IMG/VR virus record: IMGVR_UViG_3300029448_000025
Location: 653-64,652 of that record
Length of the DNA stretch: 64,000 nucleotides
Strand: one strand, 5' to 3'
Origin: a virus
Taxonomy: Duplodnaviria > Caudoviricetes
In this document: positions 6,034 through 62,548 of the stretch, in pieces
How positions within the stretch are numbered: position 1 is the stretch's first letter
Layout of the letters: each line of letters starts with the position of its first letter
Position numbers and translations under genes: made by a program
Notes under the pieces: model-generated
The model's input: only the letters and a program-made list of their open reading frames with translations
Told to the model about the DNA's origin: nothing
Database searches by the model: none

Positions 6034-6858
6034 GTGCAACCTTTCAGATATTGCGGCGAGTGGCTTTTCACATCTCCGCAAAGAGTTGTCGTTGAGCGAT
6101 TCTGCGGTTGGCGTAGAGGTGGCAAACGGCGGAGGTTTCAACCCTTTGCGATTCTGCGTGCCGGAGAACACCGCATCATCATTGACGGCTACAAACGGAT
6201 GTGGCAACTCATCGACGCGATACAGCCTGACCTGCCCCGCAGGATGGTTGATGAGGGGATGAAGGGCGGATTTCACATAGACGGCCACCCGTCGTTTGCA
6301 GATGACCTGCAATCGTTTTTTCTTGAATGCGCAGACCTGTATGTTTGCTTCGACTTTGAAAATGTGAAAATCGTCGAACCCAACAGCAACCAGTTGTTCA
6401 CGGGCATGAGCGCATCAGGTGTAAGCACGCAAAAACCACCAGAATTATTTTCTCCTGCACCTGTCGGCGGTGCATTTACTTCTGCGCAAATCCAACTGCC
6501 GTTCAGGACTGCCGATGGCATTTACCTTTTGCCGTCGTTGGTGGTCGGGGATTATCCGCATTTGGTGGTTGCGCAAAATCTAAGCGAGGGTGATTCCTTT
6601 TCATTCGACTCGCCAAGCCTGATTAGTAGCGTCGTTTGCGGCGCAGAAAACCTTGACGCAAGACCTCATCGCACACTAAAGCGGGATTCAAGGCAGGGAA
6701 TTATTTCAGATATTGAGCGCAGACTTTTTGATTTGAACGAGACAACATGGCGACCAAATCCTTGTAGAGAGCGAGAAGCAGGAGTGGGTATGACCTTCGC
6801 AGAAAGGGATTCGATAGAGTATGAGCGTGCTGTTCGGTTATTCTTTTCACTGGATTGA
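6034..6858 (+). CDS. Hypothetical protein (274 aa)
   Basis: Only long ORF in the interval; TTAAAG box ~30 nt upstream of the GTG start. Confidence 0.55.
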   Translation: MQPFRYCGEWLFTSPQRVVVERFCGWRRGGKRRRFQPFAILRAGEHRIIIDGYKRMWQLIDAIQPDLPRRMVDEGMKGGFHIDGHPSFADDLQSFFLECADLYVCFDFENVKIVEPNSNQLFTGMSASGVSTQKPPELFSPAPVGGAFTSAQIQLPFRTADGIYLLPSLVVGDYPHLVVAQNLSEGDSFSFDSPSLISSVVCGAENLDARPHRTLKRDSRQGIISDIERRLFDLNETTWRPNPCREREAGVGMTFAERDSIEYERAVRLFFSLD

Positions 6859-7046
6859 AGGAATTAAAAAAGAAATAATGCGCACACTAAAAGCCTGATT
6901 GAGTTATTCTTTATTGTTTCCTTAGAGATTAGAATTAAAGCGCCGATGAGAAGTATAGAATATAATTTAACACACCATAGTAAAGAATAAAGAATAGCGC
7001 AGACTTAAGCGCAGTCCATTGATTTATTTTTTCTCAATTCCTTCAA
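6855..7046. repeat. AT-rich palindromic element A (candidate replication origin)
   Basis: Terminal inverted repeat TTGAAGGAATT (6855-6865) / AATTCCTTCAA (7036-7046), internal AAAGAATAA repeats; homologous to 53432-53627. Confidence 0.65.
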
Positions 7047-7068
7047 AGACAAAAAAAGAATAAGCAGG

Positions 7069-7074
7069 TTTATA
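7069..7074 (+). promoter_or_regulatory. Archaeal TATA box, representative of many (also ~4842, 12823, 15447, 17921, 23406, 26519, 27243, 53659, 60894)
   Basis: TTTATA/TTTAA boxes, often 25-30 nt upstream of a start codon, implying leaderless mRNAs. Confidence 0.6.
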
Positions 7075-7098: not shown

Positions 7099-7911
7099 AT
7101 GGCATGGAGATTAACGACCACAGGAGAGACAGATTTTATTTTGAGCGAGGCGTGCATGGATGCTACGCACATACTAATTACAAACATGGATGATTCAAGC
7201 AATTTGCCTGAGTTGTTGGTTGAACATATTATCAAAGACCGACACGGTGAAACGGGGAAACCGGATGGCTACATTACAAGCAAGCACGCCATGACTGCAC
7301 CGCATAGAGTTTTGAACGAGAAGAATAATATGTGGCCGGTTTATCTACGGGATAACACATTGTATATTTGCGTAGCATCCCCGCCGACTGTATCGCCTAA
7401 GACCAACAGAAACGAATGGTTGTTCAACTATCCACCTGCACGCGATATTGCTATGCACTTCAAGCACGCAGAACATCTATCTACTTTAAGCACATTTGCT
7501 CTCGACTCCTTATTCAAAGACCCGCCATCCGAACCGAATACCGAATGCGTATTTGTTTCCGCAGATGAGTTCGGAACAGACGATGCACCGCAGACATTAC
7601 AGGCAGTTTGGGCGTGGGCATCTCCGCAGGTATTCTCGCTATGCACCGATGAAACGGAATCGGGCGCATTTATTATGCGCAACGAACAACCAAGCAACAG
7701 TGATTCATTCCCGATTGAACCTGCCGACTTTCAAAATATGTGCGACTTGTTGCGTGAACATGGGTTTTCAATCCTTCATGGCACAGCAGATGATGCGCAA
7801 AGCGTATATATGGGTATGGCATCGGAGGCTTTAGAGCGCATCAACGATTTGGTGGATAGTGCCGAATTAGAAAAGCGAAAGCAACGATATTCAGGAGGAA
7901 TGTTTCAATGA
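7099..7911 (+). CDS. Putative PAC2-family (proteasome assembly chaperone-like) protein
   Basis: Order of motifs (HILIT..., LLVEHII, GYITS, WPVY, LYIC...PP, ARDIA, LSTLS) resembles archaeal PAC2; C-terminus GGMFQ is HbYX-like. TTTATA box at 7069. Confidence 0.5.
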   Translation: MAWRLTTTGETDFILSEACMDATHILITNMDDSSNLPELLVEHIIKDRHGETGKPDGYITSKHAMTAPHRVLNEKNNMWPVYLRDNTLYICVASPPTVSPKTNRNEWLFNYPPARDIAMHFKHAEHLSTLSTFALDSLFKDPPSEPNTECVFVSADEFGTDDAPQTLQAVWAWASPQVFSLCTDETESGAFIMRNEQPSNSDSFPIEPADFQNMCDLLREHGFSILHGTADDAQSVYMGMASEALERINDLVDSAELEKRKQRYSGGMFQ

Positions 7912-9206
7912 CCGATATTTTCGACAGGGTTCAGAAGTTCTGCGACGACAACCACTTAGTCGATGTTGCCGACAAAGTTCCCGTATTCCTATGTAGCATT
8001 GGCGCACATATGTTTAACGCAGTGAACAAATGTTCAATGTGCGACTTCGACCCCCTCACTGCGCCCGAAGGCTCATTTGTTATCGAAGACTGCCCTCTGC
8101 GCCATACCGACTACCCGATTTATACTCCCGCATCCCGACTCGCAGATACACGCATTAACATCCTCATCAGAGGACAGAAAGGTTCGGGAAAAAATGTATT
8201 ACTCGACTTGTTCTGCGCAGAAAACACTGGTCTTCTATGGAACAATGAGGCTATGGGTGGCGTTGGTTTTAGAACCATGATAGGCGCAAACAGCATCACA
8301 GAAGCAGGTATGTTCGGTTCGGTAAACGAAGACGGCGAGATAATGGGGCGACCACTTGCTCGCGATATGTGCGGTGGTTTCATTTGCTTTGAAGAGTTTT
8401 CAAGCATGAGCGACGCAGGGAAAAAAGACCACAGCATCGACATGAAAAATCAACTACTCACTTCTCTCGACAGTGGCCGAGTCAATAAGGCCATGAAAGC
8501 GGGATGGGTGAAATACAATACTCGTTTCACGCTATGGGCAGGAACTCAACCGGCTCGTTTTGAATTGGAGTCCGGTCTTGACCGTCGTTTCTTCATCATT
8601 GACATTACAATGACTCCTGAGAAGGAGTTGGCATACAAAATTGCGCAGAACGCCCAAGCATCTACGCCTCCTGCGAAGAGGGCGGCTTTAGCGTCTGAGA
8701 TGATAGATTTGCGCAAATGGTTCATTGACCGACAAGAAAAGACTATGGCTAAAAAACCAAAGGGTGTTGTTTTCGGTGAAGACTTTGAACAATGGGTCTT
8801 GCAGGAATCAGTGCGTAGTTTTGAGTCCGACTTGTTCCGCAGAATGGCTATCGGATATGCCATGATGCAGGGGGAATGGGTCGATAAGGAATTGTTGATG
8901 GTCGATTTAGACGACCGACTGCGTGGCATTCTTGAAGACACACTGAAAATGCGCAGAAATGTTATGGATGAAGACATCCGTTTGATTCGCACTACCTATT
9001 GGGAAAAGGATGTTCCCCGTTCCGTTCTCGTCAAAGACATAGCACGCCTTGTCTGCGACAACGATTACTCCGCTTCTAAGAGGTGGATAGAAGAACACTT
9101 GATAGGTCAAGCGTGGTTCTCAGAGTTTATTCCTAAGCGAGATGGCAGAGGTCGCAAAGGCGTAGTCTGCCGTTTCGGATTTGAGGATGGTGTTATGAAT
9201 GGTTAA
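7908..9206 (+). CDS. mcm: MCM-like replicative helicase (AAA+ core only)
   Basis: INILIRGQKGSGK (Walker A), ITEAGMFGSV, GGFICFEEF (Walker B), LDSGRVNKAMKAG..YNTRFTLWAGTQP, LDRRF follow the MCM motif series. Confidence 0.8.
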   Translation: MTDIFDRVQKFCDDNHLVDVADKVPVFLCSIGAHMFNAVNKCSMCDFDPLTAPEGSFVIEDCPLRHTDYPIYTPASRLADTRINILIRGQKGSGKNVLLDLFCAENTGLLWNNEAMGGVGFRTMIGANSITEAGMFGSVNEDGEIMGRPLARDMCGGFICFEEFSSMSDAGKKDHSIDMKNQLLTSLDSGRVNKAMKAGWVKYNTRFTLWAGTQPARFELESGLDRRFFIIDITMTPEKELAYKIAQNAQASTPPAKRAALASEMIDLRKWFIDRQEKTMAKKPKGVVFGEDFEQWVLQESVRSFESDLFRRMAIGYAMMQGEWVDKELLMVDLDDRLRGILEDTLKMRRNVMDEDIRLIRTTYWEKDVPRSVLVKDIARLVCDNDYSASKRWIEEHLIGQAWFSEFIPKRDGRGRKGVVCRFGFEDGVMNG

Positions 9207-27358: not shown

Positions 27359-27430
27359 GGGCTTGTAGTGTAGAGGAAGCACACCCTCTTTGGTTGAGGG
27401 AGGTCGGAGGTTCAAATCCTCTCAAGTCCA
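27359..27430 (+). tRNA. tRNA-Pro(UGG), CCA not encoded
   Basis: Acceptor GGGCTTG/CAAGTCC-A, D arm GTGT/GCAC, anticodon arm CCCTC-TTTGGTT-GAGGG, T arm GGAGG-TTCAAAT-CCTCT. Confidence 0.88.
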
Positions 27431-27435
27431 CTTTA

Positions 27436-51073: not shown

Positions 51074-52505
51074 TTGAATCATCCTCTATTGTTTCGTTAT
51101 CCGTTGTTTCATCAGTTGGAGTTCCTTCTTGTCCGTTTTCACGGGGCAACTCGCCATTATCTGCAATTCCTTTACTATCCTTTCTAATATCGCCTTCTGT
51201 TTCATCAGGCAGGTTTACAATTTCAAGTGCTTGGTTTAAAGTAAGAATACCTGCATTGTAGCCAATGTTTGCTCTTTGCATTTTGTTAAGTCTTGTTTCT
51301 TCATCAATTGGTTCAAATTGCAAATCGGGCAAATCACTTATTCGATGGTCTATTTTTAGTAAATCTAAATGTTTACTGAATAAGGATAAAGTAGATTGTT
51401 TCAGAATACTTTGTATGCGTCTAATTGCATTACTTGCCCATAGATTAGCCGTATATGATGCGGCAAAAGTTGAACCCTTTTCTTGTCCTGCGGCAGTGCG
51501 AGGAACCTGTAAAACTGCGGCTATGTCTGCATTGATGTTATCTAAAAACCCTGATGAGTCAGGCAAAGCAGTTCTTTGGTCTATGTGCTTGATATTGACA
51601 TAATCAGGGAAAATTGGCACTTGGTCGCCTCTAAGAGCCTCCATTGTTTCAATTACTTGATTCATAATAAAAAGTAGTCTTTCTCGTTGCTCATCGGGAT
51701 TTTGTATATGTTCGACGGCTTTCATGTCAATAGTAATAAATTGCTTTGTCATAGCGTCTTCAAGTGAAATCCGATTGTTAATACTGTTGTATTTTGCTCG
51801 AATTGCTTGTTTAAGTGAAGTAAAGCGAGATGCACCCCACACGCCATAAGTAATTCTATTTTCATTATCTGTAAACCAATTACTTCTGTAATCCATTCTA
51901 AAGTGAAGTATTTCATCTGCTTTAAACTCTTGAAAGGTTGTTTCGCCTTCACGGAGATAATAGTTTTCTGCTTTGATAATCGGGTCGTTTTCATCGACGG
52001 TATCATTGATACCTCTTTCATCGTTAATGGTTATTTGCCGAATAGGGAGATTTTGCACATCTGTAATGCCCTCTTTGCCCGTTCCGACTAATTTATTGAT
52101 GTCATTGCCATAAACCATCAAGTTGCGCATTGCGCAAATTAAAATATCGTCAAAATCAAGCCTTTCGACTAATTCTTGTATTGCGTTTCTAATTCGAGCA
52201 TTGCGTGCTTTTCGGTAGTTAATAGTATAGTTGTTTGCGGTTAAGGACACTGCTCGGACTGCACCGTTTAATTCGGGGTCAAGTTTAAGCATTTCATCAA
52301 ATAATTCAAAATCATTATCAAAATTAGTATCATCTCTTAAAGTATTTGTTTCTTTAACAACATCTGAAATACCGGCCATAAGAGCAAATGGACTTCGATG
52401 GGCAACACTGTGTCTTAAATCCTCATTGCTTACAAAAGCCATAGGAACAGGTTCGGCAACATCTACTTTAGATTTGCCAAAAATAGAAAAACGAGTTCGC
52501 GCCAT
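51057..52505 (-). CDS. Portal protein
   Basis: MLKLDP.L.GAV, NLMVYGND, DEILHFR, YG.WG.S, I.AVLQVP, GILT.NQA. Confidence 0.85.
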   Translation of the reverse strand: MARTRFSIFGKSKVDVAEPVPMAFVSNEDLRHSVAHRSPFALMAGISDVVKETNTLRDDTNFDNDFELFDEMLKLDPELNGAVRAVSLTANNYTINYRKARNARIRNAIQELVERLDFDDILICAMRNLMVYGNDINKLVGTGKEGITDVQNLPIRQITINDERGINDTVDENDPIIKAENYYLREGETTFQEFKADEILHFRMDYRSNWFTDNENRITYGVWGASRFTSLKQAIRAKYNSINNRISLEDAMTKQFITIDMKAVEHIQNPDEQRERLLFIMNQVIETMEALRGDQVPIFPDYVNIKHIDQRTALPDSSGFLDNINADIAAVLQVPRTAAGQEKGSTFAASYTANLWASNAIRRIQSILKQSTLSLFSKHLDLLKIDHRISDLPDLQFEPIDEETRLNKMQRANIGYNAGILTLNQALEIVNLPDETEGDIRKDSKGIADNGELPRENGQEGTPTDETTDNETIEDDSNADDE

Positions 52506-52560
52506 GAATTACCTTTAATAGACGGCGACTTAAGAAAGTATGCACAAGAATAAGTTATTC

Positions 52561-53228
52561 TTATTTTTTAGATGATTTAGGTTTCTTAGTTGATTTTGCG
52601 GTTTTTTTCTTTGCAGGAGGGATAATATCGTAGTTACCATCTTTATTTAGACGATAAACTGTGCCATCGGCCTCAGTCCACTCTTTGAGTTGCTCACTCA
52701 TACTTAATCACCTCAAACAATACTTTCTTGGTAAGTAATATAAACATCACAAATACCGGCTGTAATAGCGGCCCCTGCAATAGTAAGTAAAAGATTATGC
52801 GCACCTGCTAAACCAATTGCACTTCCACCGGCAGTAGCGCACAATTCCCAACCAACAGTAGCGGCGGCAAGTGCGGCATCGTCAAAAGCAGTAGCGGCCA
52901 TAATACCGGCGGCTGTTCCTGTATATCCAAGAGCGATTGTTGCGCTACCCGAAGAAGTAAATGCTTGGGTCGGAACTACTAAAAACGATTTGATAAATGT
53001 TCCGGCGACAAGTGTTTGCGCTGTTCCGTCTGCGGCAGTTAAAGTTTTAGCGCCAGTAGTCTTTGAAGAACCGTCATAAGAAAACTTTAGGGTCTTTTCA
53101 ATAGTAGTTGCTGTCTTTGCGTCAGTTACGGAGTCTGCTTGTAGTTTTGCGGTTGATACCGACAAATCATCAAGGTGTCTATTTTTAAGAGCGCGGTCGA
53201 GTTGCGAGTTGGTGTGTCCTACTGCCAT
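52561..53228 (-). CDS. Putative virion protein (52713-53228) and small basic ORF (52561-52701)
   Basis: TQAFTSSGSATIALG...G..DVYITY beta-sandwich; SD GAGGTGA before the 46 aa ORF. Confidence 0.55.
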
Positions 53229-53431
53229 AATGATACACAGAAACCGTTTGACTTATCAAAGTATTGGGTAATCCATACTAAAAATTATTAAGCAAACAAA
53301 ATAAAAAGTTAATTAGGGCGTTAAAATGATAGATTTTACCTTTAATGGAGTAGTTTTAATTGGCGGTAGCACACTTTTGATACTTGAGTTAATTTGGTGG
53401 GCATTAGTGTTTTTGTTTATTCTTTTTAGAC

Positions 53432-53627
53432 GAAAGAAAAAATTAAGAAAGAATAAAACGATTGACTGAATACAAATTGCTATTATTCTTTATTCTTTAC
53501 TAAGAGATAAAAAACTATTATCTAAGTAAATAATAAGCGGCCCAATATCTAAACACTTAAGAAGAATTAAAAGAATAAATCGAATAGGCTTTCAGTGCCT
53601 TGTTTATTTCTTTTTTAATTCTTTCAA
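53432..53627. repeat. AT-rich palindromic element B, inverted homolog of element A
   Basis: AAAGAATAAATCGAATAGGCTTTCAGTG...TTATTTCTTTTTTAATTCTTTCAA matches the reverse complement of 6855-6915; TATTCTTTATTCTTTACTA matches the reverse complement of 6978-6996. Confidence 0.65.
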
Positions 53628-53687
53628 AAGCATAAAAAGAATTAAATTGCGCAATACCTTATAAGCCAAACCTATTAAGTGCGTAAT

Positions 53688-54914
53688 ATGGCAATAGAAT
53701 ACCATGATGCTGTTAAAAAAGAAATTGATGAGCATTATACTGGAAACATTATGGCTTTTTCAAGACACATGCACAGTATTATGCCTGAAATAACAAGTGA
53801 ACAGCATAGATGGCGTTTGCGTATGTTAAAACAACATATGTCGGAGATTTTTCCTGTTTTTAAAAATGTTGATTATAATGCAGAAATACCAAAACAATTT
53901 GACGGCACTCAAGCACAGTTAATACGCATTATGCACAAACGGTTTCCTGAAATCTCAAAGTCAGGTTGGGAGTCAAGGATTCGGGCGGCATGGGAAAGAG
54001 AAGCGGTTACTCGCACAGAAACACCCCATTTTATTGTCGAACACTTGAAAAAGAAGTCAAGTAGTCAAGAAGACCTATGGAATGCTATTGAAGAACGCTC
54101 AAAAGCGGCGATTCTTGCAAACACAGATGCTCGTTGGGCTACATTTCACATGAAGTCCGATAAACGATACATTGGCATTGCATTTCAAAGCGACCAACAC
54201 ATAGGCAATCCATTTTGCGACCATGAAAGGTTGCGCGAAGACACAGAAGCAATTGAACGACACCCTGAATGCTATGTTATTCATGCGGGTGATTATATTG
54301 ACAACTTTATGATTGACAAACCTCGACCTGCTATGAAAGCACCTATTCCTCCTTCTATCCAATGGCAACTATGTGAACACTACATTAACATGAGTCCTAA
54401 TTCACTTATGGCTATTGTTGCGGGTAATCACGACCTTTGGACTGCCGGTGCAACAGATTATGACCCTCTAAAGCGTCTTGCGCAAGACAGAGGCGTTTTG
54501 TATCACCCGTATGAGTTAAACCTCAAAGTTATTCACGGCGATATTCCTTATCACCTTAGTATTCGACATAAGCGAAGAGGTAATTCAAATCTCGACCCAA
54601 GCCGTGTAATTAAGAAAATGTGGGATGACGGAGAATGTGATTTTGACATTGGAGTTATCGGACATCATCACACGCCATCAGTTGTTCCTTTTACTCGACA
54701 TGCAGTTGAGCGTTGGGCTTTAAGGCCGGGCGCATACAAAACAATAGACAGTTTCGGTGAAATGTGCGGTTTTCCGAGAGAACGCCCAACATCCCCTATG
54801 GTTGTCCTTGATTCTCAAACAAGAGATATTCAAGCATTTACAGACCTTAGACATGGACTTAGACTTCTTAACACTCTTAATGGAAGGAAAGCAAATGCCT
54901 ATATGGAAGAGTGA
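53688..54914 (+). CDS. Calcineurin-like metallophosphoesterase with duplicated N-terminal helical repeat
   Basis: SDQHIG, GDYID, GNHD, RH, GHHH. Confidence 0.85.
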   Translation: MAIEYHDAVKKEIDEHYTGNIMAFSRHMHSIMPEITSEQHRWRLRMLKQHMSEIFPVFKNVDYNAEIPKQFDGTQAQLIRIMHKRFPEISKSGWESRIRAAWEREAVTRTETPHFIVEHLKKKSSSQEDLWNAIEERSKAAILANTDARWATFHMKSDKRYIGIAFQSDQHIGNPFCDHERLREDTEAIERHPECYVIHAGDYIDNFMIDKPRPAMKAPIPPSIQWQLCEHYINMSPNSLMAIVAGNHDLWTAGATDYDPLKRLAQDRGVLYHPYELNLKVIHGDIPYHLSIRHKRRGNSNLDPSRVIKKMWDDGECDFDIGVIGHHHTPSVVPFTRHAVERWALRPGAYKTIDSFGEMCGFPRERPTSPMVVLDSQTRDIQAFTDLRHGLRLLNTLNGRKANAYMEE

Positions 54915-55092
54915 TGACGAACAGTTAATCCTTACTGAAATGGGGCATGATTATGTCGCATTTAATATATTTTCAGAAGAATTAGTTATTGGCATTATGC
55001 TTAATAGAAATGAAATTGAAGAGTTATGCAACTCTTTGCTTGAATACTGTGGAATACCTGTTTTTGAGGTGAAAAACAATGATGAAGAATAG
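54895..55092 (+). CDS. Small hypothetical protein
   Basis: 65 aa ORF coupled to the terminase gene. Confidence 0.5.
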   Translation: MPIWKSDDEQLILTEMGHDYVAFNIFSEELVIGIMLNRNEIEELCNSLLEYCGIPVFEVKNNDEE

Positions 55093-56578
55093 AATAATGA
55101 CTGCTCTTAATATGGAAAGAAGCAGGTATGACATTAAACATTTTTATGAATGGCTTGGCTACAATTGGGGCGACCACATAGGAGAATGGTTAAAACTTTA
55201 CAGTGAAAGAGGCGAAAGACAAGTTCACCGTGTATGCGTAATTGCACCTCGCGACCACTCTAAATCAACAACTCTTCGAGTAAAAGTTCTTCATCAATTA
55301 CTTTTTGAAAAGTGGCGAGGTAAACCGTTTACTATTTGGTTGTTTTCCGCTAATAAAGACCTTGCGATAAACAGACTTGATGAAATAAGACAAGACCTAA
55401 AACGACATCCTGAATTGTCAAGACTTATTGATGTAACAAAAGGAAACAGATATGAGTTGCGATTAACAAACGGCGCTTGGATTAAGGCAACATCCGTTGG
55501 TTCAGGTATTCGGGGCGAACATCCAGCCGCAATTGCTCTTGACGATGTATTAGACGACCAAAATGATATGTCTTATGATATAGTCCAACAATGGTTCAGA
55601 AAAAAATTAACACCTATGCTATCGCCCGGAACTTCTATTTATTGCGTCGGAACGCCTATGTCAATGAACGATTTATACCATACTGAAATGCTAAGTAATG
55701 AGTCTTGGCAATCATGGCGTAAAGGTTCTATTGTAAATTATGACGAATGGAGAAATGACCCTGATAATGTAAAACCTGTCTGTCTGTGGCCTTCTGAAAG
55801 ACCTATTGAGTTTTTGCTTGAACAACGACAAGCAATTGGTGATTTAGCATTTGCGCAAGAATACCTTTGTAAAGTAGTCGATGACGACAGCGCAGTTTTC
55901 CCTCAACAACTTACACGCAAAAATATGAACATGGATGTTATACTGCAAAATAAAAAAATACATGACGGGCGCTATGTTATAGGCTTTGACCCTTCACATG
56001 GCATAGGAAAAGACTACACGGTTATGGTTGTTCTGCGTCAAGACAAAGAAGGCTTCATACATATTGTAAATATGTGGCGAAAAAACGATTTTCCCCCAAA
56101 TAAACAAATTGAAATGATTGGAAAGTTTAATGACGCATACAAACAGCCAACTTTTGCTTTTGAAAGCGCAGGTTTTCAATCTCTTTACAAATCTCTCGTT
56201 GAACAAAGCAAATTGACGCTCGATATGAAAATGAGCAAGGTATCAAACAAAACACTCAAGCAAGGACTACTAAATCGCCTCCGAGTATGGTTTGAACAAG
56301 AAAAAGTCGTCATACCCTATGGAAACGACGAAACAAGACGGGTTATGAGCATCCTCCTTGACGAATTGGAGTCGCACGCATGGAAAAACGGCGATATTGT
56401 CGATAAAGGCAAGCATAATGACACAGTTATGGCCTTTGCGCACGCAATAGACCAATTTAAGACAGGCTTTAACGCCGGATTAGCCATGACAACAGGCCAA
56501 ACTGACATATCTAAGTGGAACACAGCAAAAATTAACAAAAATAAGCGAGTTTCAAGCAAATATGTGCCTTTTTTCTAA
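55079..56578 (+). CDS. terL: Terminase large subunit
   Basis: APRDHSKST (Walker A), IRGEHP..IALDD (Walker B), VGTP, FAQEYLC, IGFDP...DYT, FES, HNDTVMA. Confidence 0.92.
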   Translation: MMKNRIMTALNMERSRYDIKHFYEWLGYNWGDHIGEWLKLYSERGERQVHRVCVIAPRDHSKSTTLRVKVLHQLLFEKWRGKPFTIWLFSANKDLAINRLDEIRQDLKRHPELSRLIDVTKGNRYELRLTNGAWIKATSVGSGIRGEHPAAIALDDVLDDQNDMSYDIVQQWFRKKLTPMLSPGTSIYCVGTPMSMNDLYHTEMLSNESWQSWRKGSIVNYDEWRNDPDNVKPVCLWPSERPIEFLLEQRQAIGDLAFAQEYLCKVVDDDSAVFPQQLTRKNMNMDVILQNKKIHDGRYVIGFDPSHGIGKDYTVMVVLRQDKEGFIHIVNMWRKNDFPPNKQIEMIGKFNDAYKQPTFAFESAGFQSLYKSLVEQSKLTLDMKMSKVSNKTLKQGLLNRLRVWFEQEKVVIPYGNDETRRVMSILLDELESHAWKNGDIVDKGKHNDTVMAFAHAIDQFKTGFNAGLAMTTGQTDISKWNTAKINKNKRVSSKYVPFF

Positions 56579-56700
56579 AAAATCGGCAAAAATTAAAAAA
56601 AATATAAAAATTGTGAGAGGTGGTTGGCGTGCGTAGCCCCGTCAGTATGCGCAGTTTTTGGCGCACCTAAAGCGCAGGTTCAGGGGCCGCAATTATTTTG

Positions 56701-58188
56701 CCTAAACGACGCACTGCGAGCCTGTTTGTCTGCGTGTTCTGCGCAGTTCATGCTCGCGCAGGTGCGCGTCATCACGCCACACGCCTTATGCGTCTGTTTT
56801 TCGATTTGCGCCAAAAGTTTCTGAAAGGGCCACTGAGAGCCTGTTTAGGGCCAATAATCCACTATTCAACTCAAGGTTCAGTAGTGCGAATGGCACATAG
56901 CGAGGCTGTTTGACCTTCTGCGCAACCCCAAATATGCGACCTTCTGCGAGACTCCAAGCGATTCATTCAGAAAACCACGCCAAAATTGACGCCTCAGAGC
57001 CTCCCCCATAGCCCCGCAGTCTATCGTTTAGACCACCCTCAAACGACCTTCTCAGAGTTGAAACCTCAGAACTCAAAACCGTTGCACTGCGCCCCACCTT
57101 AGAAACTGCGTGAACCGTTGTTTTCAAGTATCAAACCGCCGTTTTCCGGTTTACCGCCATACATGCCGAATATGTGCAATTTCTCAACATTGCCGAAAGA
57201 GTCCGTTTTCACCATACCGGCACTGCGGCGCAGTCTATCGAATGACTACTGAACCGATGGTTCCCCTATGGTAGCACTCCCCGCAATTTTGCGCAGAGCC
57301 TCAGTGCATCGAATAGAAAGCAACGGGGTGCGGCTATTGCATCATCGACTTTCGGCGTTTTCTGCGTGTTTTCTAAAATCGCCGTTTCCGTTCCGTTTGG
57401 GCTGTTTTTGGTTTTTCATCGAATGTCGGAAACCTGCAATTTATCCCGCCGATTCTGAAAAAAACGATGGACTGCGAAGCCGACACTAAAACCCCGCAAT
57501 CCCTAAACGATGCACTGAGAGCCTATGAGTTCTAAACGCCGCACTGCTCGACCGGCGGCCCCATGTCGGCTTGACATCGACCGGACAACAGCCCCGCAGT
57601 CATGCGTTTACCGATTCGGCCTCGCGTGCATGATGCGCGTGCGTATGCGAGATTTGGGGGCTTTGCGTGGATTGTCTAAACGATGGACTGAGAGCCTATC
57701 CTCTCTCCTGATTCGATGCCTAAACGATGGACTGCGCCGCTATTTTCCGGTTTCCGACATGACCTGAAACGACCTTTTCGGCCAAACAGCGCCGCAGTGT
57801 TGCTTTTAGACCTGTTTTCTGAAATGCTAAACGATAGACTGCGAGCCTATTGATATTCTGCTCTGCGCCGTATTCCTAAACGATAGACTGAGAGCCTGTT
57901 ATTTTCCTAAACGATGGACTGAGAGGCGGAGAACCCTAAACGATGGACTGCGAGCCTGTCGCCTAAACGCTATACTGCGCCGCAATTGTAGAGCAGTGCA
58001 TCGAATAGATTCTGCGAACACCCCTAAACGATAGACTGCGCCCCGATTGTCTCTCAGTGCGCCGTTTTTTTTCAGGAGATTTCGACAAAATCAAAACCCG
58101 CAACCGTCGAAGATGTGCATATAAGAACTGCGCCGTTTTGCTTCAAGGCACACTGCGAGCCTGTCGCCGTCGCAGTGCATCGTTTAGG
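56701..58188. repeat. Dispersed array of the bipartite motif (CCT)AAACG-N4-ACTG(C/A)G(AGCC) in the non-coding region
   Basis: + copies at 56701, 57461, 57502, 57532, 57676, 57719, 57827, 57875, 57906, 57935, 57962, 58023; - copies at 57015, 57229, 57300, 57595, 57993, 58053, 58171; further degenerate copies. Confidence 0.92.
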
Positions 58189-58256
58189 TTGCTTCTGCGC
58201 CGTTTACCTTCTCGCTTCATATACTCCCATGAGAGAGGTGAAACCGGAGAGATACC

Positions 58257-60863
58257 ATGATACAAAATATATGTATGAAAATAATGGCCTTCATCCTCGC
58301 AGTGGTGCTTTTTACCACTGCGGCGGGTGTCGGTCTTGAGCAAAACCCTTTGACTGAGGTTGAAGGAGAAGACAACATGAACAAAGAAAACGACGCACTG
58401 CGCCCCATTTGGGCAGAGTTGCCTGAACAAACGCACATCTCGCGTTCGCGAGTCAAGCGTTTTCACCGCAAGCAACAATTGCGTGAACAGCGCCCCCGTC
58501 ATGCGTTCAAGCGAGCATTGCGCCGCTTGTTTTCTTTAGGGCATCTGCGTGAAGAATCGAAAGGTTCAGGCGTTTGGATTCTTGACAAAAGAAGCACACT
58601 GCGCCGCATTTCGGACTTCTTGAGCCATCGGGTTCAAATTATCCGTATTGGCTTCGCAGTCCGTCGATTAGCGAAGGAAACCGCGAAGAAGAACGCAGAA
58701 CTCACACTCGCGAGTGATGCGTTTTCATCCGTTGAAATTGCGCCGCAGTCAAACGAATTGTTTGAATATCAGTGGGATGAGGTCTGCGAGTGTAAAACCT
58801 GCGGAGATTTCACCGATGAAGTCGATTTGACCCTTGAAAATGGGCCGCAGTGCATCGAATGTTACTTAGACGAAACCGACGCACTCACGCAGACACGCGA
58901 CGACATCGACAAATACGCAGACTGCGAGCCGGTCGATGGTCTTTTGTCAGACCTGAACCCCGACCTCGTAGAATACGGAAACGCTACACTGCGCCGCACT
59001 TTCTGCGTCGTTGCTGTTATCGCGGTTTTGTATGCTTTCGACATCACTCAATTGTCTTTCAGTCTTGCGTTTATCGGCGCAGTTCGCACGCCCAAGCCTC
59101 AATGGTTGAAGGACGCGGAGAACTCAGGCGTTGAAGTGATTTCAAAGGGTCGCAGTGTTCCGATTTCAGGCCGAAAGGAAAACACACGGGTGAAGTCCTG
59201 CGCCGCTTGCGGTTGCGATATTCCCGCCGGTCAATACTTCGCCCAACTGAATGCGAAGAAGGGAAACGGTGAACCTTTCGCCTCCTTAAAGCCACACTGC
59301 GAGACATGCACAGCCGAATATATCCAAGTTCATCAAACGATAAAATCGTATCGCTCAGGCGCACATAATGCGCCTGTCGCGAGTGCCTCGGTTTCTGAAC
59401 CTGAACCTGAACCTTTGACCGTCAATGTTCAAAACAACGCACTGCGCCCCAATTCTTTCAAGGGAACATGCGCAGTTTGTAGCGTTGAAGTTCCGTCGAA
59501 GGCGGGATTCATTCACGCAGAGAGTCCGAAAGGGCATAAAATCCGATGTGCTGAACACGCAACTGAGGCGCTGTTTATCGGTTCAAACGGTGAGCCGATT
59601 CAAGGCAAAAAGTCCAACGGCGCAAGCCGTGTGATTCCTGAACCTTCACAGGCTCTCAGTCAAGCGGTTAAGGCGCAAGTTTCTGCGTCGTTGCCATCGA
59701 CTGCGCAAGGCGATAAAATCGAACTTCTTCAAGCGTTGCTTTCAGGCGATGGTTTGAATGAAGAACAAGTGCGCAGTGTTGCGAAAGCGGTTGTTGAACA
59801 ATACGCAGAAACTGCGATTCAAAACGGCGTTCAAAACGCTTCTGCGCATGTTGAAGAACGGATTGAAAAAGTCGTTTCAGAATTGAAGGCTCAAGAAGTC
59901 ATCAAAACGCTACACATCAAGCCATCGAAGAAGGCCAAAGCGGTGAAAATATCAGGCGCTTATCATCCCGCAGTGCCGACCGTTTTCTCAATCCTGAAAG
60001 CGGGGCTTCTCAATGGCTCGCCGTTGCCTGTTTACATGGTGGGCGAAGCGGGAACCGGCAAGTCTTACGCAGTGGCTCAGGTTCAAGCAATGCTTCAAGC
60101 GGCTAAATTGCAGAGCAGTAAAGCGTATGGAGAAATCATATGCTTCGCAGATATGACACGGGGCGACCTTCTCGGTAATGTGAAGTATGGCGTGGGCGGT
60201 AAAGGTTCTATTGAATGGCAACGCAGTGGCCTTGTTAAGCCGCTTCTTGAAGGCGGCGTGGCCTTTGTCGATGAAATAGACAAAGCAGACCCCGCAGTCC
60301 TCGTTTTATTGAACGGCGTGCTTGCATCGCGAACCGTCATCAATCCGGCAACGGGTGAAGTCCTGAAAGTGCATCCTCAAGCGGTGATAATCGCCGCAGG
60401 AAACACCGGCGGTCATTCGATGGGCGGCGCTTACAAAGCGGCGCAGATTCAAGACGCCTCGCTTCTTGACCGATTCGCCGCAACCGTAGTGAAGTTTGGA
60501 TTTTCCGCACGCATTGCGGCTTCAATATGTGGCCTCAGTCATTCGATGGCCGAACCTGAAAACAGTCCACGCGGTGAACCTGCGCAGATGTCCGAGGTTT
60601 TGAAATCCTATACCGAATTGCGCCAAATTGTAGTGGGTCAAACCACTGTGCAATACAGCAACCGCGCCCTTCTTCATGCGTCGGTTTTGGCTAAAGACGG
60701 GTGGACTCTGAACGCCATTATTGGTCGATGGGTTGAACCGCTTGATTCTGAACTCCGCAGAGAGGTTTTGAATCACTTCGGAATGATAGACGGCGAGGCT
60801 CTTTCATTGGTTCCGCAAGGTGTCTTTGAACCTGAATCCGTAGATATTGCGGGAGGCGCTTAA
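58257..60863 (+). CDS. MoxR/CbbQ-type AAA+ ATPase with N-terminal hydrophobic segments and Zn fingers
   Basis: VGEAGTGKS, FVDEID, AAGNT, LLDRF; CKTC...CIEC, CAAC...CETC, CAVC...CAEH. Confidence 0.85.
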   Translation: MIQNICMKIMAFILAVVLFTTAAGVGLEQNPLTEVEGEDNMNKENDALRPIWAELPEQTHISRSRVKRFHRKQQLREQRPRHAFKRALRRLFSLGHLREESKGSGVWILDKRSTLRRISDFLSHRVQIIRIGFAVRRLAKETAKKNAELTLASDAFSSVEIAPQSNELFEYQWDEVCECKTCGDFTDEVDLTLENGPQCIECYLDETDALTQTRDDIDKYADCEPVDGLLSDLNPDLVEYGNATLRRTFCVVAVIAVLYAFDITQLSFSLAFIGAVRTPKPQWLKDAENSGVEVISKGRSVPISGRKENTRVKSCAACGCDIPAGQYFAQLNAKKGNGEPFASLKPHCETCTAEYIQVHQTIKSYRSGAHNAPVASASVSEPEPEPLTVNVQNNALRPNSFKGTCAVCSVEVPSKAGFIHAESPKGHKIRCAEHATEALFIGSNGEPIQGKKSNGASRVIPEPSQALSQAVKAQVSASLPSTAQGDKIELLQALLSGDGLNEEQVRSVAKAVVEQYAETAIQNGVQNASAHVEERIEKVVSELKAQEVIKTLHIKPSKKAKAVKISGAYHPAVPTVFSILKAGLLNGSPLPVYMVGEAGTGKSYAVAQVQAMLQAAKLQSSKAYGEIICFADMTRGDLLGNVKYGVGGKGSIEWQRSGLVKPLLEGGVAFVDEIDKADPAVLVLLNGVLASRTVINPATGEVLKVHPQAVIIAAGNTGGHSMGGAYKAAQIQDASLLDRFAATVVKFGFSARIAASICGLSHSMAEPENSPRGEPAQMSEVLKSYTELRQIVVGQTTVQYSNRALLHASVLAKDGWTLNAIIGRWVEPLDSELRREVLNHFGMIDGEALSLVPQGVFEPESVDIAGGA

Positions 60864-61962: not shown

Positions 61963-62548
61963 GAACCATTGAAAACGGTGGACTGCAATACATTTGAACA
62001 ACTTTAGAAAGTCAAAAAGGAGGTGCGAAAAAGAAGGAAAAGGATAGATTGAGAGATGTGGCCCCGTGTTTCTCAAATCCAAAACATTGCGCAACGGGGC
62101 ATTTTCTCATGCCGATTGGCTCGCAGTGTAGCGTTTAGCCACTGCTTTCTTGCCTCGGTGATTCTCCGCAGAAGTGGCCGATAGGCTCGCAGTCAAGCGT
62201 TTTTACCGCCGCCGCCATTCGACGTGCGATTGATTCTGCGCCGTTCTGTTTTTTCCGGCCTGAAATCTCAAACCTCAAATCTCAAATCCAAAACGACCCC
62301 GCAGTTTTCAATGCGTGGATTTTGCGCTCTACTGTTTCTGCGGAGTTTGAAATCCCCACCTAAATGCGCCCGAAAATACCACAGAAATATTTTGCCCTTT
62401 CTCGCACATGCCTTGCGTGTGCCTTGCGTGCGTGCATCATGTGCGCCTTTTATTTTTTATCGCATGACCCGCATATGTTGGGTTTCAGGCCAAAAATGGG
62501 GGTTTTGGGGCGGTCATTTGATAAGGTGTGGCGCTTTCGCTTAGGTTG

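Follow-up and report, generated by a model that had tools for sequence, protein, structure and literature searches.

Where does DNA replication start in archaeal tailed viruses that carry a replisome of their own, with PolB, a clamp loader and an MCM-type helicase? Viruses of the marine group II type have no cultured host, and a conserved, precisely bounded pair of cis-elements is concrete DNA for in vitro work on binding, unwinding and helicase loading, as well as a fixed point of reference when coverage gradients or the starts of transcripts are interpreted in marine time series. Such a pair is considered here. A preliminary description, made from the sequence alone, reported two homologous palindromic elements in inverted orientation, here A and B, likened their architecture to that of archaeal origins, and named paired recombination or inversion sites and a shared regulatory switch as alternatives. 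The elements are real, conserved and under constraint. They are almost certainly cis-elements to which proteins bind, and their most likely role is that of replication origins or hubs of gene control. The specific account towards which we lean, with a confidence that falls somewhat short of even, makes A and B two copies of one conserved cis-acting platform, a pair of replication origins that also touch the adjacent promoters. Even in a purely regulatory role they would give this abundant group of viruses its first defined control regions. We found no published description of such elements in the available parts of PMC5434244, PMC11706807 and PMC5332604, supplements aside, or by literature search.

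The virus and its genome

The window, that is, the whole stretch of 64,000 nucleotides analysed, corresponds to positions 653-64652 of a virus record that is 64,652 bp long and complete by the CheckV rating. Its genes fall into three blocks: a + block at 1-27471, a - block at 27436-53228, and a second + block from 53326. The first begins with small early-type ORFs and continues with replication genes, which encode an RFC-like ATPase, a DNA methylase, PolB, PD-(D/E)XK and ERCC4 nucleases, and tRNA-Pro. The - block encodes tail, tube, capsid-region and portal proteins, and the last block a small ORF, an Mre11-like phosphoesterase and TerL, followed by a non-coding field of 1.7 kb and the gene of a CobS/MoxR-like ATPase. 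This 868-aa AAA+ protein (58257-60863) was considered as a helicase and rejected in favour of the CobS/MoxR-like assignment.

Several features of the sequence bear on the genome as a whole. The tRNA-Pro gene (TGG) at 27359-27431 marks the exact convergence of the + replication and - structural blocks. G+C content is ~43-52% in the early and replication blocks (1-27000) and again from 57 kb onward, and 35-45%, mostly 37-42%, across the structural block and the phosphoesterase and TerL genes (27000-56000). Against an expectation of 1.04±1.05 (0/100 shuffles), the window contains 13 copies of the palindromic octamer CTGCGCAG, scattered genome-wide, with sites at 8213, 16766, 18746, 22895, 25786 and 29542 among others. 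CTGCGC or GCGCAG lies inside many of the longer repeats of the window.

What kind of host does this genome suggest? The nearest cultured sequences to its PolB are those of haloarchaeal tailed viruses, at 22-24% identity. TATA-like boxes stand 29-31 nt before many start codons of the window, which implies leaderless mRNAs. An archaeal host would fit these PolB neighbours and leaderless-type starts as well as the predicted MCM-like helicase described below. The earlier label of magrovirus is plausible for this virus; genomes of its clade measure 53-70 kb, and published magroviruses are ~100 kb according to the available part of PMC5434244.

Two homologous, inverted elements

In local alignment A scores 91 against the reverse complement of B and 52 in direct orientation; dinucleotide shuffles reach 23.5±2.9 with a maximum of 37, and 0/500 attain 91. 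The similarity is thus significant against composition-matched shuffles, and the two elements are homologous, inverted and AT-rich, as first described. The two inverted repeats formed between them, I1 (73 nt, 75%) and I2 (41 nt, 76%), are longer than any other in the window. A third copy was found neither in the window, every other 230-nt segment of which scores at most 31 in local alignment, nor in the 64,652-bp record, in which BLAST returns only the places of A and B.

The extents of ~190 bp proposed at the outset (6855-7046 and 53432-53627) capture the core of each element and fall short at the ends, which lie ~17 nt further out on each side. The outer limits are set by a pair of TTATTCTTT and AAAGAATAA boxes, giving ~227 bases (Table 1). 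The strings quoted in the preliminary description are all found at their places: TTGAAGGAATT at 6855-6865, AATTCCTTCAA at 7036-7046, AAACGATTGACTG at 53456-53468 and CGCAGTCCATTGATTT at 7010-7025.

Table 1. Coordinates of elements A and B, their parts and the neighbouring features in the window
Feature	Position	Strand	Remarks
Element A, full extent, reference orientation	6838..7064	+	nhmmer profile match 6839-7063, score 130 vs 99 on the other strand
A left-arm iteron-like box	6874..6897	+	well-conserved iteron position of the family, degenerate in this genome
A inner tandem TTATTCTTT-type boxes	6904..6919	+	
A asymmetric centre, GC island GCGCC in AT-rich DNA	6920..6981	+	confers the polarity of the element
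A inner tandem AAAGAATAA boxes	6982..6996	+	mirror of 6904-6919
A right-arm iteron-like box, degenerate	7010..7025	-	
TATA-like box TTTATA	7069..7074	+	immediately outside A; 30 nt upstream of ATG 7099
First gene after A, PAC2/PbaA-like predicted fold	7099..7911	+	C-terminus MFQ; model pLDDT 64
MCM-like AAA+ helicase candidate, 432 aa	7908..9206	+	model pLDDT 69
Small membrane-protein ORF, 47 aa	53326..53469	+	basic tail encoded by the left arm of B
Element B, full extent, reverse complement of A	53416..53644	-	nhmmer match 53417-53644, score 153 vs 100 on +
B exact AAACG-N4-ACTG box	53456..53468	+	
B second box, inverted, one mismatch	53593..53605	-	well-conserved iteron position of the family
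TATA-like box TTATAA	53659..53664	+	immediately outside B; 29 nt upstream of ATG 53688
First gene after B, Mre11-like phosphoesterase	53688..54914	+	Pfam Metallophos; phrog_7339 DNA repair exonuclease
TerL	55079-56578		after the phosphoesterase gene; phrog_38
Non-coding field rich in AAACG-N4-ACTG	56704..58185		16/23 exact window copies start here

Each element is a long imperfect palindrome, or dyad, with an asymmetric centre. From left to right, A opens with an outer TTATTCTTT box and two mirror-image boxes that correspond to the terminal inverted repeat noted at first. An iteron-type box comes next, then a tandem pair of TTATTCTTT-type boxes and the asymmetric centre, ~60 nt long with a small GC island, after which the whole series returns as its mirror image. 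About ten 9-bp boxes of the TTATTCTTT type are laid out mirror-wise in each element, and nine of the eleven exact copies of this box in the 64-kb window lie inside A or B. In addition, two boxes of the type AAACG-N4-ACTG flank the centre of each element. They are inverted in this genome and in many relatives, and the second is direct or degenerate in some lineages; at the left-arm position, around columns ~39-58 of alignment A3, 'ACT' is nearly invariant. The preliminary description had placed variants of this bipartite motif in both elements. B has one exact copy and one with a single mismatch, but the copies in A are degenerate, and the copy quoted there does not match AAACGNNNNACTG even at one mismatch.

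The palindromic character of the elements is real, though weaker than the homology between them. By plain self-alignment the symmetry is marginal: the alignment of each element with its own reverse complement is equalled by 18/500 shuffles for A and 10/500 for B. The ends nonetheless pair in single-strand folds, with z -4.56 for A (0/200 shuffles) and -2.42 for B (2/200 shuffles). Across the aligned copies, mirror positions pair in 70.2% of cells; with the partner displaced by 1-3 columns the share is 47-54%. Both sides are changed in 223 cells, against 176±10 (0/500 shuffles), and the covariation score is 0.174 against 0.144±0.006 (0/500 shuffles), a comparison in which kinship alone can beat the shuffles without structure. 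A dyad symmetry maintained by covarying arms favours replication origins.

Could the arms be paired in RNA rather than serve as DNA sites? Transcription of a long hairpin RNA, or of a small structured one, from the centre would go with the end-to-end hairpin that exceeds shuffles and with the TATA-like words in the centre. However, Rfam has no match at the elements, its sole match in the window being the tRNA-Pro gene (27359-27430); RNAalifold finds 0 consensus pairs among 40 sequences; and the centre differs in both length and sequence among the copies. An RNA gene at these places is, on this evidence, most improbable.

Conservation and polarity in related viruses

The phosphoesterase gene, used as a query, retrieves 41 related viral loci. 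An element stands immediately upstream of this gene in 36 of them (local scores 54-408); of the other five, three lack that upstream DNA and two are distant yet alignable. A profile built from 40 distinct copies matches exactly two places, on opposite strands, in each of the five close complete genomes (G000, G001, G002, G004 and G008). In seven relatives (G001-G004 and G008-G010) the A-equivalent is in synteny, flanked by homologues of ORF 6034-6858 and ORF 7099-7911 that share only 25-48% identity. G006 is distant, and its A-equivalent is placed between the homologue of the upstream gene and the MCM-like gene. Two syntenic copies are present in nine of eleven near-complete genomes, the remaining two being G005 and G007, of which G007 was compared by 17-nt matches only. 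The preliminary description had made conservation in relatives a test of its proposal, and both elements are present there. Homology beyond chance, a count of exactly two opposite-strand copies per genome, and the conservation and synteny of both copies all favour the view that A and B are origins.

When the shared direction of the genes is taken as reference, A and B are reverse complements of each other in all eight genomes with clear polarity; that of the A-equivalent of G006 is ambiguous, at 29.0 vs 22.1 bits. The contigs are circular permutations of one map, which A and B split into arcs of ~45 and ~17 kb. In one sub-clade (L025, L026, L034 and L035) the best alignment of the B copy runs in the opposite sense: its centre is flipped relative to the flanks, and the GC island is found at the opposite end of this centre. 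The flipped centre, together with the direct second iteron of some lineages, is more readily reconciled with binding modules that tolerate either orientation than with a directional promoter, and it counts in favour of origins.

Inverted copies that divide a circular map are also what paired recombination sites would look like. Here a site-specific recombinase, or the resolution of a cruciform, would invert the 46.5-kb (or 18-kb) arc between A and B or flip the centre, and the cruciform potential of the folds, the flipped centre of one sub-clade and the ERCC4 and PD-(D/E)XK nucleases encoded by the virus would all find a place. Yet gene order at both copies is identical in 8/8 genomes, and no integrase, resolvase or invertase domain is found in 56 ORFs. 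A contig from the source sample passes straight through B with 0 differences, although contigs cannot show minor isomers. In a comparison of sample contigs X1-X4 over 51500-56500, the loose contig ends at 53484 and 53627 represent cross-mapping of the A-bearing contig on B, and one X3 contig skips 53469-53592, which indicates that some relative has a different centre. The constant gene order and the lack of a recombinase domain speak against the inversion alternative, and we regard it as very unlikely.

The size of the elements (~190-230 bp), their AT-richness and their terminal inverted repeats recall MITEs or other selfish repeats. Unlike these, A and B comprise two copies only, always in the same syntenic places, next to flanking proteins that have diverged to 25-30% identity; they show no sign of mobility, and no target-site duplication is seen by eye at their ends. 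That they are selfish repeats is hardly credible.

How do the two copies evolve? A tree built from 16 copies joins the A and the B of one lineage, with support of 82/88 for G008/G009 and 93/90 for G004. For four of eight A copies the best-matching B is that of the same genome; it is second for three and sixth for one. Arm covariation and this lineage-wise clustering point to a common constraint on the four arms, which could be one binding factor or gene conversion. Clustering of A with B by lineage fits a shared binding factor or gene conversion, and it again favours origins.

The AAACG-N4-ACTG motif and the field after TerL

The iteron-type motif AAACG-N4-ACTG is not confined to the elements. 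At one mismatch it occurs 58 times in the window, against 17.3±4.2 expected (0/100 shuffles), and most of the exact copies start in the non-coding field directly 3' of TerL. The motif-rich region of 1.7 kb (56580-58256) is GC-richer; its copies are mostly on the + strand, partly arrayed at 27-31 nt spacing and often extended to ...ACTG(C/A)(G/A)AGCCT(G/A), and more of them follow up to 59072 and at 61973-62202. The motif is the only relation between the field and elements A and B, and the iteron segment of the element profile finds weak matches in the field of four genomes. An iteron motif common to the elements and a dense field is consistent with an origin system and favours that view of A and B. 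Against it, iterons are more plentiful in the field, itself a candidate for the origin, while each element has only two iterons, one of them degenerate in A and several relatives.

Might the elements then be accessories of the field? The field at 56.7-58.2 kb would be the main site, whether origin, centromere-like or for packaging, and A and B its distal partners, joined to it in handcuffed or looped complexes that serve copy control, partition or packaging. The shared motif, the position directly after TerL and the short regularly spaced arrays are what such an arrangement would lead one to expect. The field after TerL is present in G001, G002 and G004, weak in G006 and absent in G008; the G008 clade, however, keeps the iterons in both elements, which makes the elements the older, conserved feature. 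Nor do domain scans of the window find ParB, TerS or Rep candidates. An accessory role for A and B is unlikely.

Neighbouring genes and promoters

A and B each lie between two + strand genes. The product of the first gene after A (ORF 7099-7911) looks, in its predicted structure, like the archaeal PbaA/PAC2 proteasome chaperones and unlike an initiator; the top Foldseek match is PbaA (E 1e-4, TM 0.50). Its C-terminus is invariant, M-F-(Q/G), an ending that we take to recall the HbYX docking motif, and going by the model the protein may be a viral interactor of the host proteasome. A search for related loci yielded one near-identical fragment only, and the protein Atlas no usable match. That the predicted product of this gene looks like a proteasome chaperone, and that no initiator domain was found in the 56 ORFs scanned, weakens the case for an origin.

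The second gene of the operon (ORF 7908-9206) gives a different picture. The top Foldseek matches of its model are MCM subunits (E 6e-7), with BchI also listed. Its sequence has no match in Pfam, PHROG or the PDB sequences, and PDB sequence searches with the three flanking proteins return nothing below E 0.18. The protein is widely conserved, with 334 homologues at E ≤ 1e-5 and at least 57% identity across 21 aligned homologues. The preliminary placing of A upstream of a helicase operon thus agrees with an MCM-like fold predicted for this ORF, and the position of A directly before an operon with an MCM-like protein favours an origin. An alignment search of genome contigs with the MCM-like protein also found L076, a 61,226-bp contig in an Opitutales bacterium MAG, with a homologue at 65% identity. 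It is probably a virus of this family mis-binned into a bacterial MAG, and Opitutales was rejected as a clue to the host.

B had been placed at the divergence of the structural and terminase operons. It is near that point, ~190 bp away, but the small ORF 53326-53469 lies between. The last 54 nt of this ORF are the left arm of B, and an ORF of at least 30 aa ends in the left arm of B in 26 of 31 loci; in 23 of those 26, by reading, a hydrophobic stretch is followed by a basic tail. The overlap of the left arms with coding sequence counts against origins.

A platform for transcription control alone is a strong rival and upholds the shared regulatory switch of the preliminary description as a serious candidate. 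The boxes and iterons would serve as operators, or in the manner of enhancers, for a regulator encoded by the virus or the host that times P(7099), for the helicase and replication block, and P(53688), for the nuclease-terminase block, while T-rich tracts on both strands would also terminate the upstream genes. TATA-like boxes stand 29-31 nt before leaderless ATGs immediately after both right arms, and the box of A is kept in the A-equivalents of G000-G004. The same TATA-ATG geometry recurs at other genes of the window; the first gene on the structural side, whose upstream region ends at 53228, has its own TATA-like box at -31. A terminal box of the AAAGAATAA type lies 5-14 nt upstream of both TATA boxes, and in both cases a + strand gene stops before the element. 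The 9-bp box also occurs as a near-perfect inverted pair (52546-52565) that adjoins the TATA-like box of the portal gene, upstream of it. TATA-like boxes at -29 to -31 by both elements fit a purely transcriptional role and to that extent weaken the case for origins.

Several observations stand against transcription control as the whole explanation. A and B are oppositely oriented, although both flanking promoters point the same way. The box pair at the portal promoter is missing from 15/15 relatives and belongs to this genome only. The motif occurs in 16 exact copies in non-coding DNA, unlike a promoter regulon. Finally, the layout is mirrored and covarying over ~227 bp with a conserved polar centre, and the archaeal operators known to us need far less than such an architecture. 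A purely transcriptional platform is somewhat unlikely, if clearly the reading to be weighed against paired origins.

Origin-type features and the host

Do A and B behave like origins in the physical properties of their DNA? B is the least stable 200-bp duplex in five of six genomes and the second least stable in the sixth. The detrended cumulative GC-skew minimum lies ~0-1 kb from B in five of six genomes and 6 kb off in this one, a position confounded by a gene-strand switch ~200 bp away. A is among the six least stable windows in only one of the six genomes, and no change of GC skew occurs at A. The preliminary comparison with origins is therefore compatible with the stability minimum at B, although the skew signal there is confounded and A has neither feature. 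Low stability and the skew minimum at B, in five of six genomes each, favour an origin; the confounded skew, its distance of 6 kb in this genome, and the lack at A of low stability (in five of six genomes) or a skew change weaken it.

The domain scan of 56 ORFs yielded neither Orc1/Cdc6 nor Rep nor any other origin-binding domain, in line with the original remark that no Orc1/Cdc6 is evident. Iteron-type origins carry at least three phased direct iterons next to AT-rich DNA, along with a Rep gene; the elements have two boxes each, and arrays spaced at 27-31 nt occur only in the separate field.

On the host side, the iteron pattern occurs in 92 of 201 genomes of the order of one Candidatus Poseidoniaceae MAG. 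These genomes contain 132 matches, against 24 for the reversed control, by a hand count inflated by orthologous coding matches, and the over-representation in this putative host order is a lead, not support. In the boldest reading, given below, the reader of the motif could be a host protein borrowed by the virus. None of ten regions upstream of host-order cdc6 (five genomes, ~500 nt each) carries the iteron pattern, which weakens the case for an origin. Three of 30 host-order iteron contexts, in Poseidoniales-order loci (L198, L232 and L217), adjoin tRNA 3' ends, and in L156 the motif lies at the end of a phage-integrase gene, adjoining very AT-rich DNA; such iterons may mark integrated elements or a host signal. 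The genome-contig matches listed are mostly single chance matches in bacteria, with several in Poseidoniales/Euryarchaeota MAGs. The contexts of the archaeal MAG matches are mixed (coding, beside tRNA genes, beside one integrase), and no Orc1/Cdc6 lies within 3.5 kb of the iteron at six such MAG loci.

A proposed model for paired origins

How might a pair of origins of this design work? A sequence-specific viral or host factor would bind the AAACG-N4-ACTG box in each arm, and a second factor, or the same one, would coat the ten mirror-wise TTATTCTTT boxes. The easily melted, polar centre would then open, and the MCM-like helicase, predicted to be encoded just after A, would be loaded. The promoters that abut the right arms would probably be controlled by the same occupancy; some viral origins double as promoter-regulatory regions. 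Protein binding, unwinding and replication initiation at A and B are steps that we infer from the arrangement of the DNA.

A bolder form of this model is doubtful. It would give a family of uncultured marine archaeal tailed viruses a pair of mirrored origins, A and B, of a new type, in which a factor reads both the 9-bp array and AAACG-N4-ACTG and loads a stripped-down viral MCM without Orc1/Cdc6.

Comparison with known systems

At archaeal oriC, inverted ORB or mini-ORB boxes surround an AT-rich unwinding element beside orc1/cdc6. The elements recall this plan in that, in this genome, an AT-rich centre that may melt easily lies between inverted asymmetric boxes of 13-22 nt, and in that A adjoins a replication gene block with an MCM-type helicase. 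In contrast to oriC, the virus has no Orc1/Cdc6 gene among the 56 ORFs, and the box is absent upstream of ten host-order cdc6 genes; A and B carry ten extra 9-bp boxes, occur as two copies per 60-70 kb genome, and have a second box that is flipped or degenerate in some lineages.

Iteron-type origins of plasmids and phages can have a separate iteron control locus, as with P1 oriR plus incA. One asymmetric motif of ~20 nt likewise marks AT-rich sites here and a dense array elsewhere; however, each element has two boxes, no Rep gene was found in the window, and the array is absent in one sub-clade.

Herpes simplex virus oriS and oriL and the baculovirus hr regions are multi-copy origins with imperfect palindromes that double as promoter-regulatory or enhancer regions. 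These viruses and their hosts are unrelated to the virus described here, and A and B differ from their origins in number (exactly two), in their polar centre and in their opposite orientation. The likeness lies in the overall design: a palindrome with an AT-rich centre, mirrored putative protein-binding boxes, promoters alongside, and more than one copy per genome.
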